Below, in pieces: positions 4,053 to 43,063 of a stretch of DNA of 52,238 nt. Source of the stretch: an uncultured Anaerolineales bacterium. Its GTDB lineage: Bacteria; Planctomycetota; Phycisphaerae; FEN-1346. The position numbers were made by a program, and so were the translations under genes. The first letter of the stretch is position 1, and every line of letters begins with the position of its first letter. The stretch covers positions 1-52,238 of the forward strand of contig CAYTJE010000001.1 of assembly GCA_964437855.1 (NCBI GenBank), written 5' to 3'. The notes beneath the pieces are model-generated. The model worked only from the letters and a program-made list of their open reading frames with translations, was not told the DNA's origin and made no database searches.

Positions 4053-4235
4053 CGGCTCAGTATCGCCTCCTTGAGGGGTTATCGGCTCGTTTCGGCGCTG
4101 TTCTCAATGGTATAGCGCCGGCGGCGCGGGGTCAATGCGGGGAGGCGGGAGGGGTGCCCTTCGAGCCGCGTGTGTAAGCACGCGGGTTCGCACAATCGGT
4201 GGCGCATGTATCGCACGCGAGTATCGCGCCGCCAA

Positions 4236-4270
4236 TCGAGCATACCCGCGACCTCACGGTCGCGGCTCGA
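4236..4270. repeat. REP-like hairpin, family E (TCGAGC..CGCGACC-TCAC-GGTCGCG-GCTCGA)
   Basis: The 28-nt string CCCGCGACCTCACGGTCGCGGCTCGAAA (4245-4272) is identical to 42135-42162 inside mtaB. It lies immediately downstream of the stop of the 4276-5712 gene. Confidence 0.75.
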
Positions 4271-4275
4271 AAACC

Positions 4276-5712
4276 CTACTCGCCATAGACGACCATCGCC
4301 GGCAAACGTTCATAGGTATCGACGCCCGCCGGCGGCGGGGGCGCCGGGTCGCGGAACCAGGCGAGCAGATACGGCCCGTCGCCGGTGCGGCGATGGGCGT
4401 CCCACCAGGCCAGGCTCCGCCCGGCCCAGGCCAGGTCGGCGTCGCCGCCGGTCTTCCACTCGACGGCCCAGGCGTCGAGGGGTTGCGTGCGGCCGTCGGC
4501 GTCGGTGGCCTCGCTGCCGTCGACCCGAAGCATCGCGACGGCGTCCGGCCGGTTCGACAAAGCGCGCAAGCCGGCCGGGCTCGGCTCCACCGCCTTGCTT
4601 TCGAAGGGCATGGGCTGCGTATCAAGCAGGTGGAGCAGAAACCGCGCCGCGCGGCTTTCGAAAGCAGGCGCTTCGCCCAGACAGAGTACGCCCTGCACCT
4701 TGTATAGGTCGTCGGACGAAGCCAACACGGGAAGCGGAAACGGGGTTTCTCGAGGTTTCGGCAACGGGAAGCGGGCAGCGGTGCCGCCGTGCGACGCCAA
4801 GCAGACAAAGTGCTCCAAGGCCGCGAGCGGCTTTCCACGTTCGGCATAGTACACGCGGGCTTCGCGGATGCTTGGCCCTTCTGGCCCGGCAAACAGAACG
4901 ATCAGGACGCTTGACGCAGCGGCTAGCAACAGCATTGCTCCCACCAGAAACGCACGGCGGCGCTGAAGCAGAAGGGCAGCCACGAGCACGGCCAGCGAAA
5001 AAAGGGCTAGGCCCAGCCAGATCGTTGTCGAGTCTGCTCCCGGCCCTGAAGCCTCAGCGAATAACCAACAAGTGTCCGGTTGAACCGTGGCCAGCATGCC
5101 CGGCGGGAAGGACGCCGACACGACCTGTAGGTCATCCGGCGGCCGGTAATGTACGACCCGCGCCCGGCCCGGCGGAGCGCCGTTATCGGTCACAATGACG
5201 TCCAGTAGGCCACAGCGGGCCGCCATGTTGAATTCGCCGGGCAAGGTGGAAGAGTAGTAAATGGAGCGAACCTCTCGACCATCCAGGGCTTTACGGAGAT
5301 CCCGTACAAGACGCGTACTCCCTCGCGTCATCATTCGCCCCACGATAGCCACGTTCTCGGAGACGGGGCGAATCGGGATATCCTCTATCTCGCTGACATC
5401 AACTATATCACCATCGCTGCTCTCGCACCCAACCGTCACAGACAAGGGGCCGCCAGCGTAGAAGACGGGGAAAACGAACTCTTCGGTTCGGCCGGGAGCC
5501 ACGTGAAGCGGCGCCACGATGTCAACCGGGCCGCCACAGGAAACGCGAGTCCGGTCGAAAGGCCGGTCCGAGTCGTTCGAAACAACCAGCGTCACAGGCA
5601 CGTAATAGCCGACGCGCGCCAGGCCGTCGGTGACGTCGAGGGAGGCGGTGACGTCGATGTCTGCGGCGAGGGCGGCGGGGACGGCGAGGAGGAGAAGGGA
5701 AAATGATGTCAT
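4276..5712 (-). CDS. Hypothetical secreted/membrane protein (signal peptide plus two central TM helices)
   Basis: Start chosen at ATG 5712, giving MTSFSLLLLAVPAALAADI, a signal-like N-terminus. The longer ORF to 6066 runs through a repeat and into the upstream gene. No recognisable domain. Confidence 0.6.
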   Translation of the reverse strand: MTSFSLLLLAVPAALAADIDVTASLDVTDGLARVGYYVPVTLVVSNDSDRPFDRTRVSCGGPVDIVAPLHVAPGRTEEFVFPVFYAGGPLSVTVGCESSDGDIVDVSEIEDIPIRPVSENVAIVGRMMTRGSTRLVRDLRKALDGREVRSIYYSSTLPGEFNMAARCGLLDVIVTDNGAPPGRARVVHYRPPDDLQVVSASFPPGMLATVQPDTCWLFAEASGPGADSTTIWLGLALFSLAVLVAALLLQRRRAFLVGAMLLLAAASSVLIVLFAGPEGPSIREARVYYAERGKPLAALEHFVCLASHGGTAARFPLPKPRETPFPLPVLASSDDLYKVQGVLCLGEAPAFESRAARFLLHLLDTQPMPFESKAVEPSPAGLRALSNRPDAVAMLRVDGSEATDADGRTQPLDAWAVEWKTGGDADLAWAGRSLAWWDAHRRTGDGPYLLAWFRDPAPPPPAGVDTYERLPAMVVYGE

Positions 5713-5805
5713 GCTGAGCGCCGCGACGCATCTCGCCTTGCTCCACAGCCAAAACAAAAGACCACGGCGAGATTCTTCGTCGCCCTGCGGGCTCCTCAGA
5801 ATGAC
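5708..5805. repeat. MITE-like palindromic element, family B
   Basis: The left end GTCATGCTGAGCG..CGACGCATCTCGCC and right end GGCGAGATTCTTCGTCG..GCTCCTCAGAATGAC are inverted copies. It fills the spacer between the debranching gene and the 4276-5712 gene. Confidence 0.75.
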
Positions 5806-5819
5806 AACCGGTTTGCCCA

Positions 5820-8042
5820 TCACGGCGCGCCCCCCGTCTCCTCCAGCATCCGCCAGATATGGATCGCGGCCGCCACCGACCACGCCTGGGCGATGCACCC
5901 GCCGGGTGCGTGCGGCGGGTCGCCGTCGTACACCTCGCCAATCTGGCCCAGACACGCCTCGTCCATGGCATCCACGAGCCCAGAGAGGATCTGCCCCGCC
6001 TCGCCCCGGGCACACTCGCGGCACTCGACGGCGAAGACGGCGTCGACGTACGGCCCCAGGAGCCACGGCCAGGCGGTGCCCTGGTGGTAGGCGGCGTCGC
6101 GCTCGTCCGGGCCGCCGCGGTACACCCCTTTATACGAGGGATGGGCCGGGTCGAGCGTCCTGAGGCCGCGGGGCGTCAGGAGCCGCTCGCGGACCGTCCG
6201 GACGACGGCCTTCGCGCGCTCGCCCCGCAGCGGCGCGTGCGGCAGGCCGACCGCGAAGATCTGGTTCGGCCGGATCGCGGGGTCGGGGGTGCCACCCGGC
6301 GCGATGCAATCGTACAGACACCCCGCGGCCTCGTTCCAGAAGAGGGCCTCGAAGGCGTCGCGGGCGGACGCGCGAAGGCCGCACGCCTCGGGCGCCTCGA
6401 CGCCGAGCGTCTCGGCCATCTCCTCCACGAGGGCGAGGCCCGAGAGCCAGAGGGCCTGGACCTCGACCGCCTTCCCGTGGCGGGGCGTGACGGGCCGACC
6501 GTCGGACGTGCGGGCGTCCATCCACGTCAGTTGCGTGTGCTCGTCACCGGCCAGGACGAGACTGTCGGCGTCGGCATGGATGCCGAACCGCGTGCCCTCG
6601 GCGCAGCGGCGGACGATGTCGCAGGCGACGGGCCAGAGCGAGGCGCGGGCGTGGTCGGCCCAGCCGGGGTCGTGGGGCACTTCCTGCTCGCCGCACCACG
6701 TCACGTACGCCGCCAGGGCCTGGAGGAACCAGAGGCCGGCGTCGACGGTGTTGTAGGCGGGCTCGCCGTCCTCCTCACCGAAGGAGTTGGGGATGAGACC
6801 ATCGGCAGCGGCGGCGGCGAACGCCTCCAGGACCATGGCGGCCTCCGCGGGCCGCCCGACCTCGATCGCCAGGCCCGGCAGGGCGATCATGGCATCGCGG
6901 CCCCAGTCGGCGAACCACGGGTAGCCGGCGATGACGGTCCGCAGGTCCTTGCCCGCGGCGCGGCGGCAGACGAGGAAGGCGTCGGCGGCGCGGCGGAGGG
7001 CGGAAACGGGATCGGTCGCGCTATCGGAGGGGCCGGAGCGGAGGGGGATATCCCGCCGCTCCCGCGGCGGGCTCGAAGGCATGGCGCGCGGCGGGCTCGG
7101 AGACGGCGGGTCGAAGACACAGAACAGGCGGCAGTCGCCGGGGCCGGAACCGCGGACGGTCCATCGGCCGGGCGCGAGGAGGTCCTGCGTGAAGTCAAAC
7201 CCGCGCTCCCGCTCGACGCGGACCTGGACGCCCTCGTACCACGTGGGCTCGCCGCCGGCCTCGACGGAAACATCCCCCTCGCTGTCATCCTGAGGCCCGC
7301 AGGGCCGAAGGATCTCGCCTTGGTCGTTCGCCGGCGCGCCGTTCTCACGGCGAGGTTCTTCGTCGCGGCTTCGCCGCTCCTCAGAATGACAGCCTTCCGG
7401 GACATCCGCCCACACGAACACGCCCGGCAGGCCCTCCGTCAGGACCCGCCAGCCGGGGGCGTCCTGGAGAAGTTCCGCGCGGAAGCGGTCGTGCTTGTGG
7501 CCCAGATGGTGCATCGACCGCAGGGCGAGCATCGGGGCCAGGTCGAGCGTCCAGTCGCCGTCGGCCTGGACCTCATAGGTGATGCATACGCCCGCCGCAT
7601 CCGGCAGCAGGTGGACCTCACGGGTCACCGTCGGCCCGGCGGCGCGGGAGACGAGGGCCACCCCGCTTGCGCGGCGGGTCTCCGCACCCGCCGCGTGGTC
7701 AACCAGACCGCCTATCCTGCGCGGTGGCTCCGCAGACCCACCGCGCGGCACATTATGGAACTCGAAGGCCACCGCCGAGCCGTCGGGATGAAAGCCGCCT
7801 GAGTACTCGGTGGTGGAGAGCCAGGCCTCGCCGTCGGCGGTCGCGAGCCGCTCGTCGATGTGCGAGAGGACGACGTGCCGCCCCAGCGGCGGCCGCAGCG
7901 CCGGCACCCACAGGCCGTGATACCGGCGCGTCGGACACAGGAGCACCGTGGAGGAGGCGTAGCCGCCGCCGCCGTCGGCCAGGAGCCACTCGGTGGCCAG
8001 GGCGCGGTCGAGGTCTCGCAGGTCGTCGGCGCGGCGGTGCAT
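5820..8042 (-). CDS. Amylo-alpha-1,6-glucosidase / glycogen debranching enzyme (bacterial-archaeal GDE type)
   Basis: N-domain GGGGYASSTVLLCPTRRYHGLW and C-domain GYPWFADWGRDAMIALPGL, with a long alpha/alpha-toroid-like tail. Start set at ATG 8042 (MHRRADDL...), because the ORF part upstream of it overlaps a repeat. Confidence 0.85.
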   Translation of the reverse strand: MHRRADDLRDLDRALATEWLLADGGGGYASSTVLLCPTRRYHGLWVPALRPPLGRHVVLSHIDERLATADGEAWLSTTEYSGGFHPDGSAVAFEFHNVPRGGSAEPPRRIGGLVDHAAGAETRRASGVALVSRAAGPTVTREVHLLPDAAGVCITYEVQADGDWTLDLAPMLALRSMHHLGHKHDRFRAELLQDAPGWRVLTEGLPGVFVWADVPEGCHSEERRSRDEEPRRENGAPANDQGEILRPCGPQDDSEGDVSVEAGGEPTWYEGVQVRVERERGFDFTQDLLAPGRWTVRGSGPGDCRLFCVFDPPSPSPPRAMPSSPPRERRDIPLRSGPSDSATDPVSALRRAADAFLVCRRAAGKDLRTVIAGYPWFADWGRDAMIALPGLAIEVGRPAEAAMVLEAFAAAAADGLIPNSFGEEDGEPAYNTVDAGLWFLQALAAYVTWCGEQEVPHDPGWADHARASLWPVACDIVRRCAEGTRFGIHADADSLVLAGDEHTQLTWMDARTSDGRPVTPRHGKAVEVQALWLSGLALVEEMAETLGVEAPEACGLRASARDAFEALFWNEAAGCLYDCIAPGGTPDPAIRPNQIFAVGLPHAPLRGERAKAVVRTVRERLLTPRGLRTLDPAHPSYKGVYRGGPDERDAAYHQGTAWPWLLGPYVDAVFAVECRECARGEAGQILSGLVDAMDEACLGQIGEVYDGDPPHAPGGCIAQAWSVAAAIHIWRMLEETGGAP
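7285..7391. repeat. Family B MITE-like element embedded in frame in the debranching-enzyme CDS
   Basis: GTCATCCTGAGGCCCGCAGGGCCGAAGGATCTCGCC ... GGCGAGGTTCTTCGTCGCGGCTTCGCCGCTCCTCAGAATGAC. It is translated as GCHSEERRSRDEEPRRENGAPANDQGEILRPCGPQDDS. Confidence 0.7.
7669..7746. repeat. REP doublet (family A) embedded in frame in the debranching-enzyme CDS
   Basis: Two hairpins: CGCGGCGGGT-CTCCGC-ACCCGCCGCG and GCGCGGTGG-N9-CCCACCGCGC. The span is 78 nt, or 26 codons. It is translated as ..VPRGGSAEPPRRIGGLVDHAAGAETRR.. Confidence 0.7.
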
Positions 8043-8110: not shown

Positions 8111-8235
8111 TAACAGAAAGACATTCAACGCAGAGCACGCCGAGGACACAGAGAGAAACGACGCCTTCTTGAGTCAGAAGCAAGGCGCTCCTTCGTTCTC
8201 AGCGGTCTCTGCGCTCTCTGCGTTTCATTCTGTTA
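8111..8235. repeat. Inverted pair of family D units (AACGCAGAG-rich) with terminal inverted repeats TAACAGAA..
   Basis: The left end TAACAGAAAGACATTCAACGCAGAGC and right end CTCTCTGCGTTTCATTCTGTTA are inverted copies. The unit resembles those at 37890-37930 and 38049-38080. Confidence 0.65.
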
Positions 8236-8326
8236 GAGGTTGTAAGGCAGGCGGGCGCCGGCACTCGAGGCGGCGTCGGAGGCCACAGGCGTTTCGGCGG
8301 GGGAGGTCTGGAGCCGGATGGCCCCC
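8233..8326 (-). pseudogene. Displaced duplicate of the 3-prime end of the GH15-ferredoxin gene (remnant)
   Basis: 8284-8326 matches 8504-8546 at about 38 of 43 nt by eye. The remnant translates as GAIRLQTSPAETPV..., against GAIRLQTAPAETPV... in the intact gene. Confidence 0.5.
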
Positions 8327-8419
8327 GACTGTTCGCGCGGTGGGCCGGGAGACCCACCGCGCGGAATGGCTGCGACTGTTCGCGCGGTGGGCCGGGAGAC
8401 CCACCGCGCGGAATGGCTG
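8326..8419. repeat. Tandem duplication (2 x 47 bp) of a family A REP hairpin
   Basis: CGACTGTTCGCGCGGTGGGCCGGGAGACCCACCGCGCGGAATGGCTG occurs twice, identical and head to tail. Each unit contains the stem CGCGCGGTGGG / CCCACCGCGCG. Confidence 0.9.
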
Positions 8420-16496: not shown

Positions 16497-16569
16497 TGCG
16501 CGGCCCGTACGGGCCGCGCAGGTCAAAAAACGCGACCTCCCGCGCGGCGGCCTTCCAGGGCCGCCGCGC
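16497..16569. repeat. Two family A REP hairpins in the spacer after the GT2 gene
   Basis: TGCGCGGCCC-GTAC-GGGCCGCGCA at 16497-16520 and GCGCGGCGGCC-TTCCAG-GGCCGCCGCGC at 16542-16569. Confidence 0.75.
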
Positions 16570-31755: not shown

Positions 31756-34329
31756 ATGTTCCGACCCACGCGACGTGAGTTTCTGAAGGCCGCAGCCGCC
31801 GGTGCGGCCGTCTCGGTCGCCCCGCACCTCGTCCGCCGTGCAGCCGGCGCCGTCACCAATCCGAAGGAACGGCCGAACATCCTCTGGCTGAGTGCCGAGG
31901 ACCTCAGCCCCACCCTGGGCTGCTACGGCGACTCTTGCGCCGACACGCCGAATCTCGACAAGTTTGCCGCCCAGGGCGTCCGCTACGACAACGCCTTCAC
32001 CCACGCGCCCGTGTGCGCCCCCGCGCGCAGTGGCATCATCACGGGGATGTACCACACGACGATCGGCACCTCGTGGATGCGATGCAGCGGCGTGCCGCCC
32101 GTCGAGGCCCGTTGCTTCCCCGAGTATCTGCGGGCGTACGGGTACTACTGTACGAACAACTCGAAGACCGATTACCAGTTCTCGCCCCCGCCCACGGCGT
32201 GGGACGAGTCGAGCCGGAAGGCCCACTGGCGCAAGCGCCCACGGAAGGACCAGCCGTTCTTCGCCGTCTTCAACTTCACCGTCACACACGAGTCGAGCAC
32301 CCGGCGGTGGAAGGAGGGCCAGCAGCAACACGACCCCGCCAAGGCCCCCGTCCCGCCGTACTACCCGGACACGCCCGTCGTCCGGCAGAACATCGCGTGC
32401 TACTACGACAAAGTGTCGCAACTGGATGGCCAGATCGCCGACCGCCTGAAGGAACTGGAGCAGGCGGGCCTCGCCGACGACACCATCGTCTTCTTCTGGG
32501 GCGACCACGGGTGGGGGCTGACGCGCGGCAAGCGGTGGGTGTACGATTCCGGCATCCGCGTGCCGCTCATGGTCCGCGTGCCGGAGAAGTGGCGCCGGTG
32601 GGCGGAGGCGGGCGTCGTCGGTTCGGTGGCCCCGGGGACGGTGGCGACGGAGTTTGCGCGGTTCCTGGACTTCGCCCCCACGGTCCTCAGCCTGGCGGGG
32701 GGGCTGATTCCCGACCACATGCAGGGCCGGGCCTTCCTGGGGCCGCAGAAAGGCAAGGAGCCCGCTTACGTCTACGCCGCCCGCGACCGCATGGACGAAA
32801 CGTACGACTGCATCCGCGCCCTCCGAGACAAAAAGTACAAGTATATCCGGAACTTTATGCCATACCTGCCCCGCGGCCAGATCATCAACTACATGGACCA
32901 GACGCCCATCCTGAAGGAGATGCGGCGGCTGCACGACGCGGGCAAACTCAAAGACGGTCCCCAGATGCAGTTCTTCGAACCCACCAAGCCCGTCCACGAA
33001 CTCTACGACATCACCCGCGACCCGCACGAGGTCCACAACCTGGCCGGCGACCCGAAGCACCAAAAAACCGTCGAGCGCATGGAGGCGGCCCTGTTTGCCA
33101 AGATGAAGGCCATCGGCGACGTCGGCCTCATCCCCGAGTGCGAGTTCGACCAGATGAAGGGTTCCGGCCGGACCGACCCGCCCGTCTTCACCGTCACCGG
33201 CGGCGGAAACGGCAAGGCCCAGATGGTCCGCCTGACGTGCCCGACGCCCGGTGCCTCCATCACCTACCAGGTCAGCGAGCCCCCCGAAGCCGGGGGCGGC
33301 ACGGTCCTTCTGCCCGCCGCCAAGGCCCGCATCCACGGCAACGGGGCCAAGAAGAGCGGCGACCACATCAGCCACTGGCGCGGCAAGGACACCTACGTGG
33401 CCTGGAAGGCGAAGGTGCCGGCCGCCGGCCGCATGCCCGTCTGGATCGCCCAGGCCAATGCCGGCGAGAGCGGATCCGAATACGAACTCGCCATCGGCGA
33501 CGCCAAACTCACCGGCCGCATCCAGCACACCAATGGCTGGGAGACATGGAAATGGGTCCGCGTGGGCGAGGTCACGCTCGAAAAGGGCGGCACGGTCGAG
33601 GTCCGCCTCACGCCCACGAAGCAGGTCCAGGGGCGGCTGGGGAACGTTCGGGCCGTCGCCATCGGCGGCGAGAAGCCCCCCGAGACCGCGCGGGGGGCGG
33701 CCTGGCTCCTCTACCACGAGCCCATCGAGGTCGCCCCGGGCGAGCGGGTCCAGGCCAAGGCCGCACGCCTCGGCTACGCCGCGAGCGCCACCGCAACGTT
33801 TACCTACGGTGACGCGGGCGAGCCGCCCGCCAAGCCGAAGCCCGATGAGACGCCGTGGCGGAAGAAGATTGACGAGAGCGGGATGATCGACCGGATTCTC
33901 GCCCTCAAGGCCTACGACGGCCGGTGGACCGAGGGAGAGCAGGCGTACCTGGCGGCCCTGGCCGACCCCACCGGCCCCGTCCGTTACTGGGCCGTGGTGG
34001 GGCTGCACCAGGCGTATGCGGACGGCCCGCCGCCGCGCAAGATCCTGGAGAAGGTCCGGGCGCTCCTCGCGGACGAGGCGCCGTCGGCGCCCATCGCCGC
34101 CGCCCACGCCCTGGTGGCCTGGGGTGAAACGGAGGCGGGCCTCGCGCGCCTGGTCGAGGCTCTGAAGGCACCGGGCGAGAAGACGCGGCTCCTCGCGGGC
34201 CACGTGCTGGAAGTCCTCGGCCCAAAGGCCAAACCCGCCGCCGCCGAAATCGAGAAGGCCGCCAACGGCCAGGGCGGCTACCCCGGCCGACTCCTCCCGC
34301 GCGTCGTCAAGGCGCTGAAGGAGGCGTAA
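31756..34329 (+). CDS. Sulfatase 5 (Cys-type, Tat signal) with a long C-terminal extension (Fn3-associated/CBM-like modules and HEAT-like repeats)
   Basis: RREFLKAAAAGAAV, SAEDLS and CAPARSGIITGM. The C-terminal half has TCPTPGASITYQV, a WETWKWVRVGEV beta-sandwich-like segment, and VRYWAVVGL/AAAHALVAWGE helical repeats. Confidence 0.85.
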   Translation: MFRPTRREFLKAAAAGAAVSVAPHLVRRAAGAVTNPKERPNILWLSAEDLSPTLGCYGDSCADTPNLDKFAAQGVRYDNAFTHAPVCAPARSGIITGMYHTTIGTSWMRCSGVPPVEARCFPEYLRAYGYYCTNNSKTDYQFSPPPTAWDESSRKAHWRKRPRKDQPFFAVFNFTVTHESSTRRWKEGQQQHDPAKAPVPPYYPDTPVVRQNIACYYDKVSQLDGQIADRLKELEQAGLADDTIVFFWGDHGWGLTRGKRWVYDSGIRVPLMVRVPEKWRRWAEAGVVGSVAPGTVATEFARFLDFAPTVLSLAGGLIPDHMQGRAFLGPQKGKEPAYVYAARDRMDETYDCIRALRDKKYKYIRNFMPYLPRGQIINYMDQTPILKEMRRLHDAGKLKDGPQMQFFEPTKPVHELYDITRDPHEVHNLAGDPKHQKTVERMEAALFAKMKAIGDVGLIPECEFDQMKGSGRTDPPVFTVTGGGNGKAQMVRLTCPTPGASITYQVSEPPEAGGGTVLLPAAKARIHGNGAKKSGDHISHWRGKDTYVAWKAKVPAAGRMPVWIAQANAGESGSEYELAIGDAKLTGRIQHTNGWETWKWVRVGEVTLEKGGTVEVRLTPTKQVQGRLGNVRAVAIGGEKPPETARGAAWLLYHEPIEVAPGERVQAKAARLGYAASATATFTYGDAGEPPAKPKPDETPWRKKIDESGMIDRILALKAYDGRWTEGEQAYLAALADPTGPVRYWAVVGLHQAYADGPPPRKILEKVRALLADEAPSAPIAAAHALVAWGETEAGLARLVEALKAPGEKTRLLAGHVLEVLGPKAKPAAAEIEKAANGQGGYPGRLLPRVVKALKEA

Positions 34330-34404
34330 CAGAAACGTATAGCACGGTGGGTCTCCGCACCCGCCGCGCAAGGTTTGTCATTCCGACCGAGCCGGCGCAT
34401 GCTC

Positions 34405-42948: not shown

Positions 42949-43063
42949 ACAACGCTATGTCAGCATGGTGCGCGGCGGGTCTGGATTACCCACCGCGCCC
43001 GAATCGGGCATTCTGCGTCTGCGCGGCGGGTGCGGAGACCCGCCGCGCACGAGATAGCGTTGT
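42949..43063. repeat. Family A REP doublet bracketed by a 10-bp inverted repeat
   Basis: ACAACGCTAT ... [TGCGCGGCGGGT..ACCCACCGCGC] ... [TGCGCGGCGGGT-GCGGAG-ACCCGCCGCGCA] ... ATAGCGTTGT. Confidence 0.8.

Follow-up and report, generated by a model that had tools for sequence, protein, structure and literature searches.

A doublet of repetitive extragenic palindromic (REP)-like hairpins is read in frame within a glycogen debranching enzyme (GDE) gene of an uncultured member of the Phycisphaerae, in the 52,238-nt stretch of contig CAYTJE010000001.1 analysed here (referred to below as the window). It is very likely that this doublet was inserted into codons for a surface loop in the N-terminal sandwich domain of a GH133-type amylo-alpha-1,6-glucosidase, and that it persists there as a tolerated passenger rather than as an adaptation. 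The original prediction, made from the letters of the window alone, had placed two hairpins of one family across 78 nt at 7669-7746 and had them translated as part of the debranching enzyme, and both of these claims hold. The gene and the parts of the inserted segment are listed below, the latter in coding order; orthologs in which the segment is missing are called empty.

5820..8042, minus strand: host gene, amylo-alpha-1,6-glucosidase / glycogen debranching enzyme with GDE_N and GDE_C domains, 740 aa, ATG at 8042
7749..7757, minus strand: reshaped 5' junction, shorter by 2 codons, with HNV where empty orthologs have (E)AEPL
7719..7746, minus strand: hairpin H1, arms 7719-7730 and 7735-7746, first in coding order, fitting the family pattern
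7696..7718, minus strand: inter-hairpin spacer, 24 nt between the 26-nt cores, coding for about RIGGLVDH
7669..7695, minus strand: hairpin H2, perfect 10-bp stem and 6-nt loop, second in coding order
7656..7668, minus strand: non-REP tail coding for SGVA (residues 126-129), part of the inserted segment, missing from empty orthologs and related across the four carriers

The doublet and its reading frame

On the plus strand, H2 (7670-7695) reads CGCGGCGGGT/ctccgc/ACCCGCCGCG with a perfect 10-bp stem, and H1 (7720-7745) reads CGCGGTGG.../...CCCACCGCG, its 12-nt arms being 92% complementary. Counted with their flanking G and C, the two hairpins occupy exactly 7669-7746 (78 nt, or 28 + 22 + 28). 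Their starts are 50 nt apart and their orientation is convergent ('><'), which is the commonest spacing and the usual orientation of the family. The minus-strand open reading frame (ORF) is intact from 8042 to 5820 and translates the doublet as residues 98-124, VPRGGSAEPPRRIGGLVDHAAGAETRR, with H1 encoding (P)RGGSAEPPR (residues 99-108 on the codon map) and H2 encoding AAGAETRR(A) (residues 117-125). The element is out of codon phase, beginning at codon position 3 of P99 and ending at position 2 of A125; a doublet with 50-nt spacing measures 78 nt, which happens to divide by three.

The predicted single-strand fold of the segment is dominated by both hairpins (RNA z = -3.1, DNA z = -4.0), and none of 200 shuffled sequences was as stable as the doublet when folded as DNA. 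A CRISPR, an attenuator and chance palindromes were ruled out as identities for the segment: there are two units only, the family is found genome-wide, and an exact 26-nt match lies 35 kb away. A search of Rfam returned sub-threshold chance matches only. A miniature inverted-repeat transposable element would have terminal inverted repeats and a target-site duplication. The two REPs serve as inverted ends, and comparison of filled with empty junctions reveals no direct duplication, although the junctions have been reshaped by later indels.

Comparison with orthologs

The segment was examined in an alignment of 31 orthologs (A1), which includes the window protein (P0001). At this site, the outgroup and most in-clade orthologs read AEPLPR-LVS. 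Where empty orthologs have 7 residues, the window protein has 34; the net gain is 27 codons (81 nt), to which the doublet, the short non-REP tail and the reshaped 5' junction all contribute. The prediction of a 26-codon insertion is therefore right for the doublet itself (78 nt) and one codon short for the net gain. The same difference is seen in a marine-sediment metagenome contig (run X2), which has 141 unaligned nt in place of 222 nt at this site (81 fewer).

Besides the window protein, a doublet occupies this site, in an identical frame, in three orthologs: P0002 (78% identical, DNA locus L001), P0003 (76%, L002) and P0006 (71%, L003). At the DNA level, the segment in each of these is itself a REP doublet, made of H1, 24 nt and H2 with a distance of 50 nt between starts, and the four carriers agree in the length of the stretch compared (99 nt). 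Intergenic copies of the family are present on two of the three carrier contigs, while on the third, L003 (4.3 kb), the family is confined to the gene. The segment is missing from the other 27 orthologs of A1 and from two N-terminal fragments, these empty fragments being all that a search for further carriers with the N-terminal 120 aa returned. Altogether, over 100 orthologs do without it. Homologs sharing the peptide without the REP, which would have spoken for an ancestral protein segment, were not found in the alignment. The empty orthologs represent the ancestral state and not the product of deletion, since they keep the AEPLPR-LVS of the outgroup. Judged by this comparison of sequences, then, the extra segment is an insertion and not ancestral.

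The earliest branch of the close clade, P0016 (L008), has 4 extra codons (PPGG-AGVI) at the site corresponding to 7656-7757 of the window. These look like the two ends of the insert with no REP core between them, and could represent either a precursor or a footprint. The idea that P0016 (PPGG-AGVILVS) holds a partly deleted insert was set aside as speculation, as the deletion arithmetic fits no repeat pair.

A REP-like family in Phycisphaerae genomes

The unit of the family is a 28-nt hairpin with the consensus G-CGCGGYGGG-TCTCCGYA-CCCRCCGCG-C, and conservation is limited to this 28-nt core. There are 7 copies within the 52-kb window, and perfect hairpins with a stem of at least 10 bp are about eight times more frequent there than expected (15 overlapping matches against 1.8 in a first-order Markov simulation). 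The copies outside the GDE gene are the following:

8315..8408, strand not applicable: intergenic family copies, a 47-nt unit tandemly duplicated with a REP hairpin in each (8336-8361, 8383-8408)
34343..34368, strand not applicable: single intergenic REP, 14 nt past the stop codon of gene 31756-34329
42971..43047, strand not applicable: intergenic REP doublet, copies 42971-42997 and 43022-43047, starts 51 nt apart

These intergenic copies are found 14, 27 and 106 nt downstream of stop codons, those at 8315..8408 being 27 nt past the stop of the upstream GH15-like gene. The likeness of the intragenic doublet to intergenic ones, which had been pointed out in the original prediction, is real: 7670-7695 and 43022-43047 are exact reverse complements of each other.

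Scanning species-representative genomes with a 26-mer pattern identified at least 112 stretches, with about 14 Phycisphaerae/Planctomycetota metagenome-assembled genomes (MAGs) among the matches listed. Family statistics were taken from 889 kb of loci fetched from about 14 such MAGs, in which 322 family hairpins were counted. The Y and R positions of the stem covary (C-G in 192 hairpins, T-A in 105 and mixed in 18), so that the stem is kept by compensatory variation. Start-to-start spacing has modes at 50 nt (32 cases), 42 nt (18) and 49 nt (9), and of 107 pairs of neighbours no more than 120 nt apart, 66 have the convergent '><' arrangement. Some types of spacer recur at many loci, in either orientation. 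In a position-frequency table of 247 oriented copies, flank conservation is confined to G(-1) and C(+26), with positions -5..-2 weakly T-rich, and no GTAG or CGTC tag is present.

About 12 of the 322 hairpins (~4%) lie inside long ORFs with a high GC content at third codon positions (GC3), the remainder supporting a predominantly intergenic placement. So few intragenic hairpins despite a high coding density fits the removal of most genic insertions, the survivors being those that preserve the frame and fall in loops. With its short imperfect palindrome, many copies, mostly intergenic location and compensated stem, the family belongs to the REPs in the broad sense. The organisation of its doublets is REPIN-like, an inverted pair with a short spacer being the common unit.

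Two other perfect GC hairpins occur in a single intergenic gap of the window, at 16497-16520 and 16542-16569. The first of them (TGCGCGGCCCGTACGGGCCGCGCA) reappears within a doublet spacer in L117, and the second (loop CTTCCAGG) is like a REP sub-variant met 4-5 times at other loci.

The host gene and its neighbourhood

The host protein has the architecture of a GH133-type debranching enzyme, a GDE_N beta-sandwich followed by a GDE_C (alpha/alpha)6 barrel. Both Pfam domains score above their cut-offs (GDE_C, PF06202, E = 1.2e-109; GDE_N, PF12439, E = 4e-37, the latter matched in two stretches). The exact substrate is left unassigned because the score against TIGR01561 (313.8) is under the equivalog cut-off of 364. 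The closest database proteins are amylo-alpha-1,6-glucosidases from Phycisphaerae MAGs, and relatives share a conserved neighbourhood consisting of GH57, GH15, GDE, an unknown gene and HflX.

The gene is under purifying selection and is not a pseudogene. Pairwise dN/dS of the window gene against six orthologs is 0.25-0.37, and the residues that are invariant in the family are retained in the host protein. Decay of the gene, which would have undone the prediction of a tolerated insertion, is disfavoured because the 740-aa ORF is intact, the GDE_N and GDE_C matches are full, dN/dS stays within this range and the structural model described below is confident.

Downstream of the GDE gene, the region 4115-5820 of the window has a GC content of 0.66 against about 0.71 and failed the GC3 gene filter; in syntenic relatives it corresponds to a gene without a Pfam match. 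Upstream of the GDE start codon, 8127-8224 contains an inverted repeat unrelated to the REP family, whose 28-nt arms are 75% complementary and 42 nt apart. Several MAGs titled 'uncultured Anaerolineales bacterium' (CAZNYC, CAZGKW, CAZEBQ, CAYGWP, CAYGZE and CAYVAM; L002, L010-L012 and others) have the REP family in common with Phycisphaerae MAGs, and CAZNYC (locus L002) additionally holds the syntenic GDE neighbourhood. The Anaerolineales label looks wrong.

Structural placement and other inserts in the same gene

An AlphaFold2 model built on an 89-sequence alignment has a mean pLDDT of 86.7 and a pTM of 0.87; it supersedes an earlier model built on 31 close orthologs, which was poor (pLDDT 62.7). 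Foldseek matches the model to the glucosidase domains of yeast (C. glabrata) and human GDE, and to the Thermococcus gammatolerans amylo-1,6-glucosidase 7vma. The pLDDT falls below 50 in three segments only (residues 100-123, 230-252 and 322-342), and all three are lineage-specific inserts. The first of these is the doublet, which maps onto the GDE N-domain fold as a low-confidence stretch linking two beta-strands of the N-terminal sandwich (residues 92-98 and 127-133). According to the model, the doublet encodes a disordered, indel-prone surface loop.

The other two segments also belong to variable parts of the gene. At 7287-7392 of the window (minus strand; residues about 230-252), there is a longer second palindromic element in frame, whose ends are the inverted repeats CTGTCATTCTGAGG...CCTCAGGATGACAG. 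In metagenomes from mats and sediments, unitigs of its left part (7345-7392) reach depths in the thousands. The third low-confidence segment, at about 7017-7079 (residues 322-342; A1 columns 380-450), varies between lineages. Different repeated peptides are found in other orthologs at A1 columns 380-450 and 250-330 (REPQALP..., DAQAN...ATEGRGSR, HSDRAATGRERGAEES). This suggests that several further repeat families are read in frame in the GDE gene across the clade.

The same family inside other genes

A screen of the 322 hairpins for flanking frames that are stop-free and high in GC3 on either side yielded three further in-frame cases besides the GDE site. In the first, a doublet is in frame in a class II lysyl-tRNA synthetase (LysRS) gene (L099 5330-5403). 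An alignment of LysRS orthologs (carriers P0123, P0125 and P0130) shows the doublet in two of them, a single REP in P0130 and none in the rest, with all insertions confined to a single acidic and variable loop in the catalytic domain. The second is an in-frame doublet in the gene of a large HZS_alpha-domain protein (L060 1043-1111), and the third is a single in-frame hairpin (L009 3736-3761) forming the linker that joins the two halves of a NirDL-like siroheme decarboxylase. The lengths of the intragenic REP cores (78, 76 and 71 nt) are not equal to total insert lengths.

Turnover of the doublet among carriers

The insert is not recent, as the window gene differs from those of the other carriers by a dS of 0.32-0.55 (67-77% identity at 4-fold sites). 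At this distance, the H2 stems are identical at 18 of 18 positions in every pair of carriers. In the H2 loop, the window and L003 have GCGGAG, where L001 and L002 have CTCCGC, the exact reverse complement. Relative to 7670-7695 of the window, this reversal is seen at L001 2754-2779 and L002 5246-5271, with unchanged stems and inside coding sequence, and it alters the peptide (AETRR against LRTRR). It is either a hairpin-loop inversion or a replacement by an oppositely oriented REP copy.

The spacers have a different history. Those of L001 and L002 are homologous (20/24 matching), and that of L003 is weakly like both (12-13/24), whereas the window spacer matches those of the three other carriers at only 5-8 of 24 positions, which is chance level. 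Given the 73% identity at the 4-fold sites of the gene, five or fewer matches with the L001 spacer have a probability of about 1.5e-7. Comparing the window spacer with about 90 doublet spacers in both orientations gave nothing above shuffled controls. Beyond H2, the non-REP tail (13-15 nt) is alike in the window and L003, with 11 of 15 nt matching and an identical ASGVALVS.

Origin and persistence of the insert

These patterns would be accounted for by a single insertion in the lineage ancestral to this genome and the two genomes closest to it, after which the arms would have stayed close to the consensus while one loop was inverted and the spacer of this genome replaced. The turnover probably came about through exchange with other copies, whether by template switching, gene conversion or recombination, their identical arms providing homology. 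The insert would have survived because the total added length of 81 nt is a multiple of three, because the reading frame used gains no stop codon, and because the loop can accommodate a change in length. The predicted product is a functional enzyme with about 27 extra disordered residues. The original prediction had taken the presence of two unrelated repeat families in frame in one gene as a sign of either strong tolerance or selection for insertions that preserve the frame. Tolerance is the better supported of the two, as the insert sits in a disordered, indel-prone loop.

Several points weigh against the account just given. A single origin is not secure, P0006 grouping apart from the other carriers and having flanks like those of empty orthologs. 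Selection on the hairpin could be the reason why the arms are so strongly conserved, and the element would then be more than a passenger. Finally, when the fetched loci were inspected by eye for ORFs resembling a REP-associated tyrosine transposase (RAYT) with REPs on either side, no obvious candidate was seen, no Y1_Tnp profile search having been made. As no RAYT was identified and the family has no GTAG or CGTC tag, a RAYT-type transposase is at most a putative agent of mobilisation, proposed by analogy with other REPs.

The first of these points raises the possibility that P0001-P0003 on one hand and P0006 on the other gained their doublets separately at the same codon, a target such as CCGCG (like the REP 5' end) or an earlier REP attracting copies to the site. 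In a neighbour-joining tree, P0001-P0003 come together with 70% bootstrap support, while P0006 groups with them in only 0-1% of replicates, empty orthologs fall between them, and the sister group P0004/5/9 is empty. The ancestral status of the empty orthologs, the 5' junction of L003 (8 codons longer, in flanks of the empty type) and the equally patchy distribution of REPs at one loop of LysRS also favour such recurrent, site-specific insertion. However, the internal nodes of the tree are weak (43-70% bootstrap), and the four carriers have in common the frame, the 50-nt start-to-start spacing, the 99-nt span and a related non-REP tail, which is at its most similar between the window and L003. 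A short tract of recombination between lineages would also mimic the pattern of separate gains. We therefore regard recurrent insertion as possible but rather unlikely.

A related proposal, to which we give similarly tentative and limited credence, is that the doublet in the GDE gene remains an active part of the genome's REP population. Exchange with other copies through recombination, gene conversion or a transposase would then hold its arms at the consensus, with loops flipped and spacers swapped, or the codon hit again, always in multiples of three. If this were true, a coding stretch of an enzyme would be rewritten repeatedly by a population of mobile repeats without the protein ever being broken.

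A selected function for the segment is considerably less plausible. The hairpins could act in mRNA or DNA, for example as a protein-binding site, by stabilising the upstream mRNA or by making translation pause between folding units; alternatively, the loop rich in Arg, Pro and Gly could have gained a role in the enzyme. The arms would be under purifying selection in consequence. Such a function would agree with stems that are near-invariant among carriers while spacer, loops and tail vary, and with a hairpin stability well over that of shuffled controls. On the other hand, most orthologs, including close ones, manage without the segment, the same REP is found in unrelated proteins and always in variable or disordered regions, and the orientation of the loop flips and changes the peptide. 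Arm conservation is a property of the family rather than of this site, as the hundreds of intergenic copies are equally conserved. An artefact or decay, whether an assembly chimera at a high-copy repeat or a pseudogene that is still open, is hardly credible: the source is a metagenome-assembled contig and the REP has a depth in the thousands in metagenome unitigs, where assemblies break, but four independent assemblies from different samples have the doublet at an identical site and frame, the ORF is intact with the low dN/dS given above, and the fold is confident on either side of the insert.

Comparison with known systems

The tolerated in-frame doublet proposed here has counterparts in several other systems. 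Rickettsia palindromic elements (RPEs) were reportedly described by Ogata and colleagues in 2000 as lying in frame in many protein genes, where they encode surface peptides compatible with fold and function. RPEs, which comprise the families RPE-1 to RPE-8, are AT-rich, about 100-150 nt long and restricted to Rickettsia. The behaviour of the doublet is analogous to theirs and the likeness goes no further, as it consists of a pair of 28-nt GC hairpins of unrelated sequence in a different phylum (Phycisphaerae).

In the REPIN/RAYT system, the replicating unit is said, following Bertels and Rainey in 2011, to be two inverted REPs with a short spacer. The family described here resembles it in its convergent pairs, its modal spacing of 50 nt and its recurring spacer subfamilies. 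A difference is that the GDE copy has a spacer matching that of no other sampled copy.

Hairpin-loop inversions reportedly occur in chloroplast non-coding DNA (Kelchner and Wendel are said to have documented them in 1996). The difference in H2 between orthologs is of the same kind, the loop being an exact reverse complement and the stem unaltered. In contrast to the chloroplast inversions, it is located in bacterial coding sequence and alters a peptide, and replacement by another REP copy is an alternative.

Close parallels are also found among the GTAG- and CGTC-tagged REPs. REPs have been found inside known genes of several species, over half of them as dimers encoding 20-30 aa, with tRNA synthetases among their hosts and the highest intragenic counts in Opitutus terrae (from the PVC superphylum, named for Planctomycetes, Verrucomicrobia and Chlamydiae) and Rickettsia conorii, the latter due to RPEs (Di Nocera et al. 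2013, PMC3733652). The family in the window is like those tagged REPs in that its short, GC-rich stem-loops are numerous and for the most part lie between genes, near their 3' ends, mainly arranged as inverted dimers and with an intragenic minority (PMC3733652). It is unlike them in being untagged, with just G...C around the palindrome, and in having an uncultured Phycisphaerae host.

In-frame insertion of REPs into genes is thus already known in other bacteria, and the present case is a well-documented further example. Segments of this type lengthen proteins predicted from MAGs, split Pfam matches and give low-confidence loops in predicted structures, and the REP signature accounts for such features without invoking new domains or pseudogenes. 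What distinguishes the GDE doublet from the cases in PMC3733652 is that its orthologs permit dating and reveal the inversion of a loop and the replacement of a spacer. It is a rare dated example, in which arms, total length and frame stay constant at a dS of about 0.3-0.5 while loop orientation and spacer turn over, and it adds uncultured Phycisphaerae and an untagged REP family to the known range of in-frame gene colonisation by REPs.

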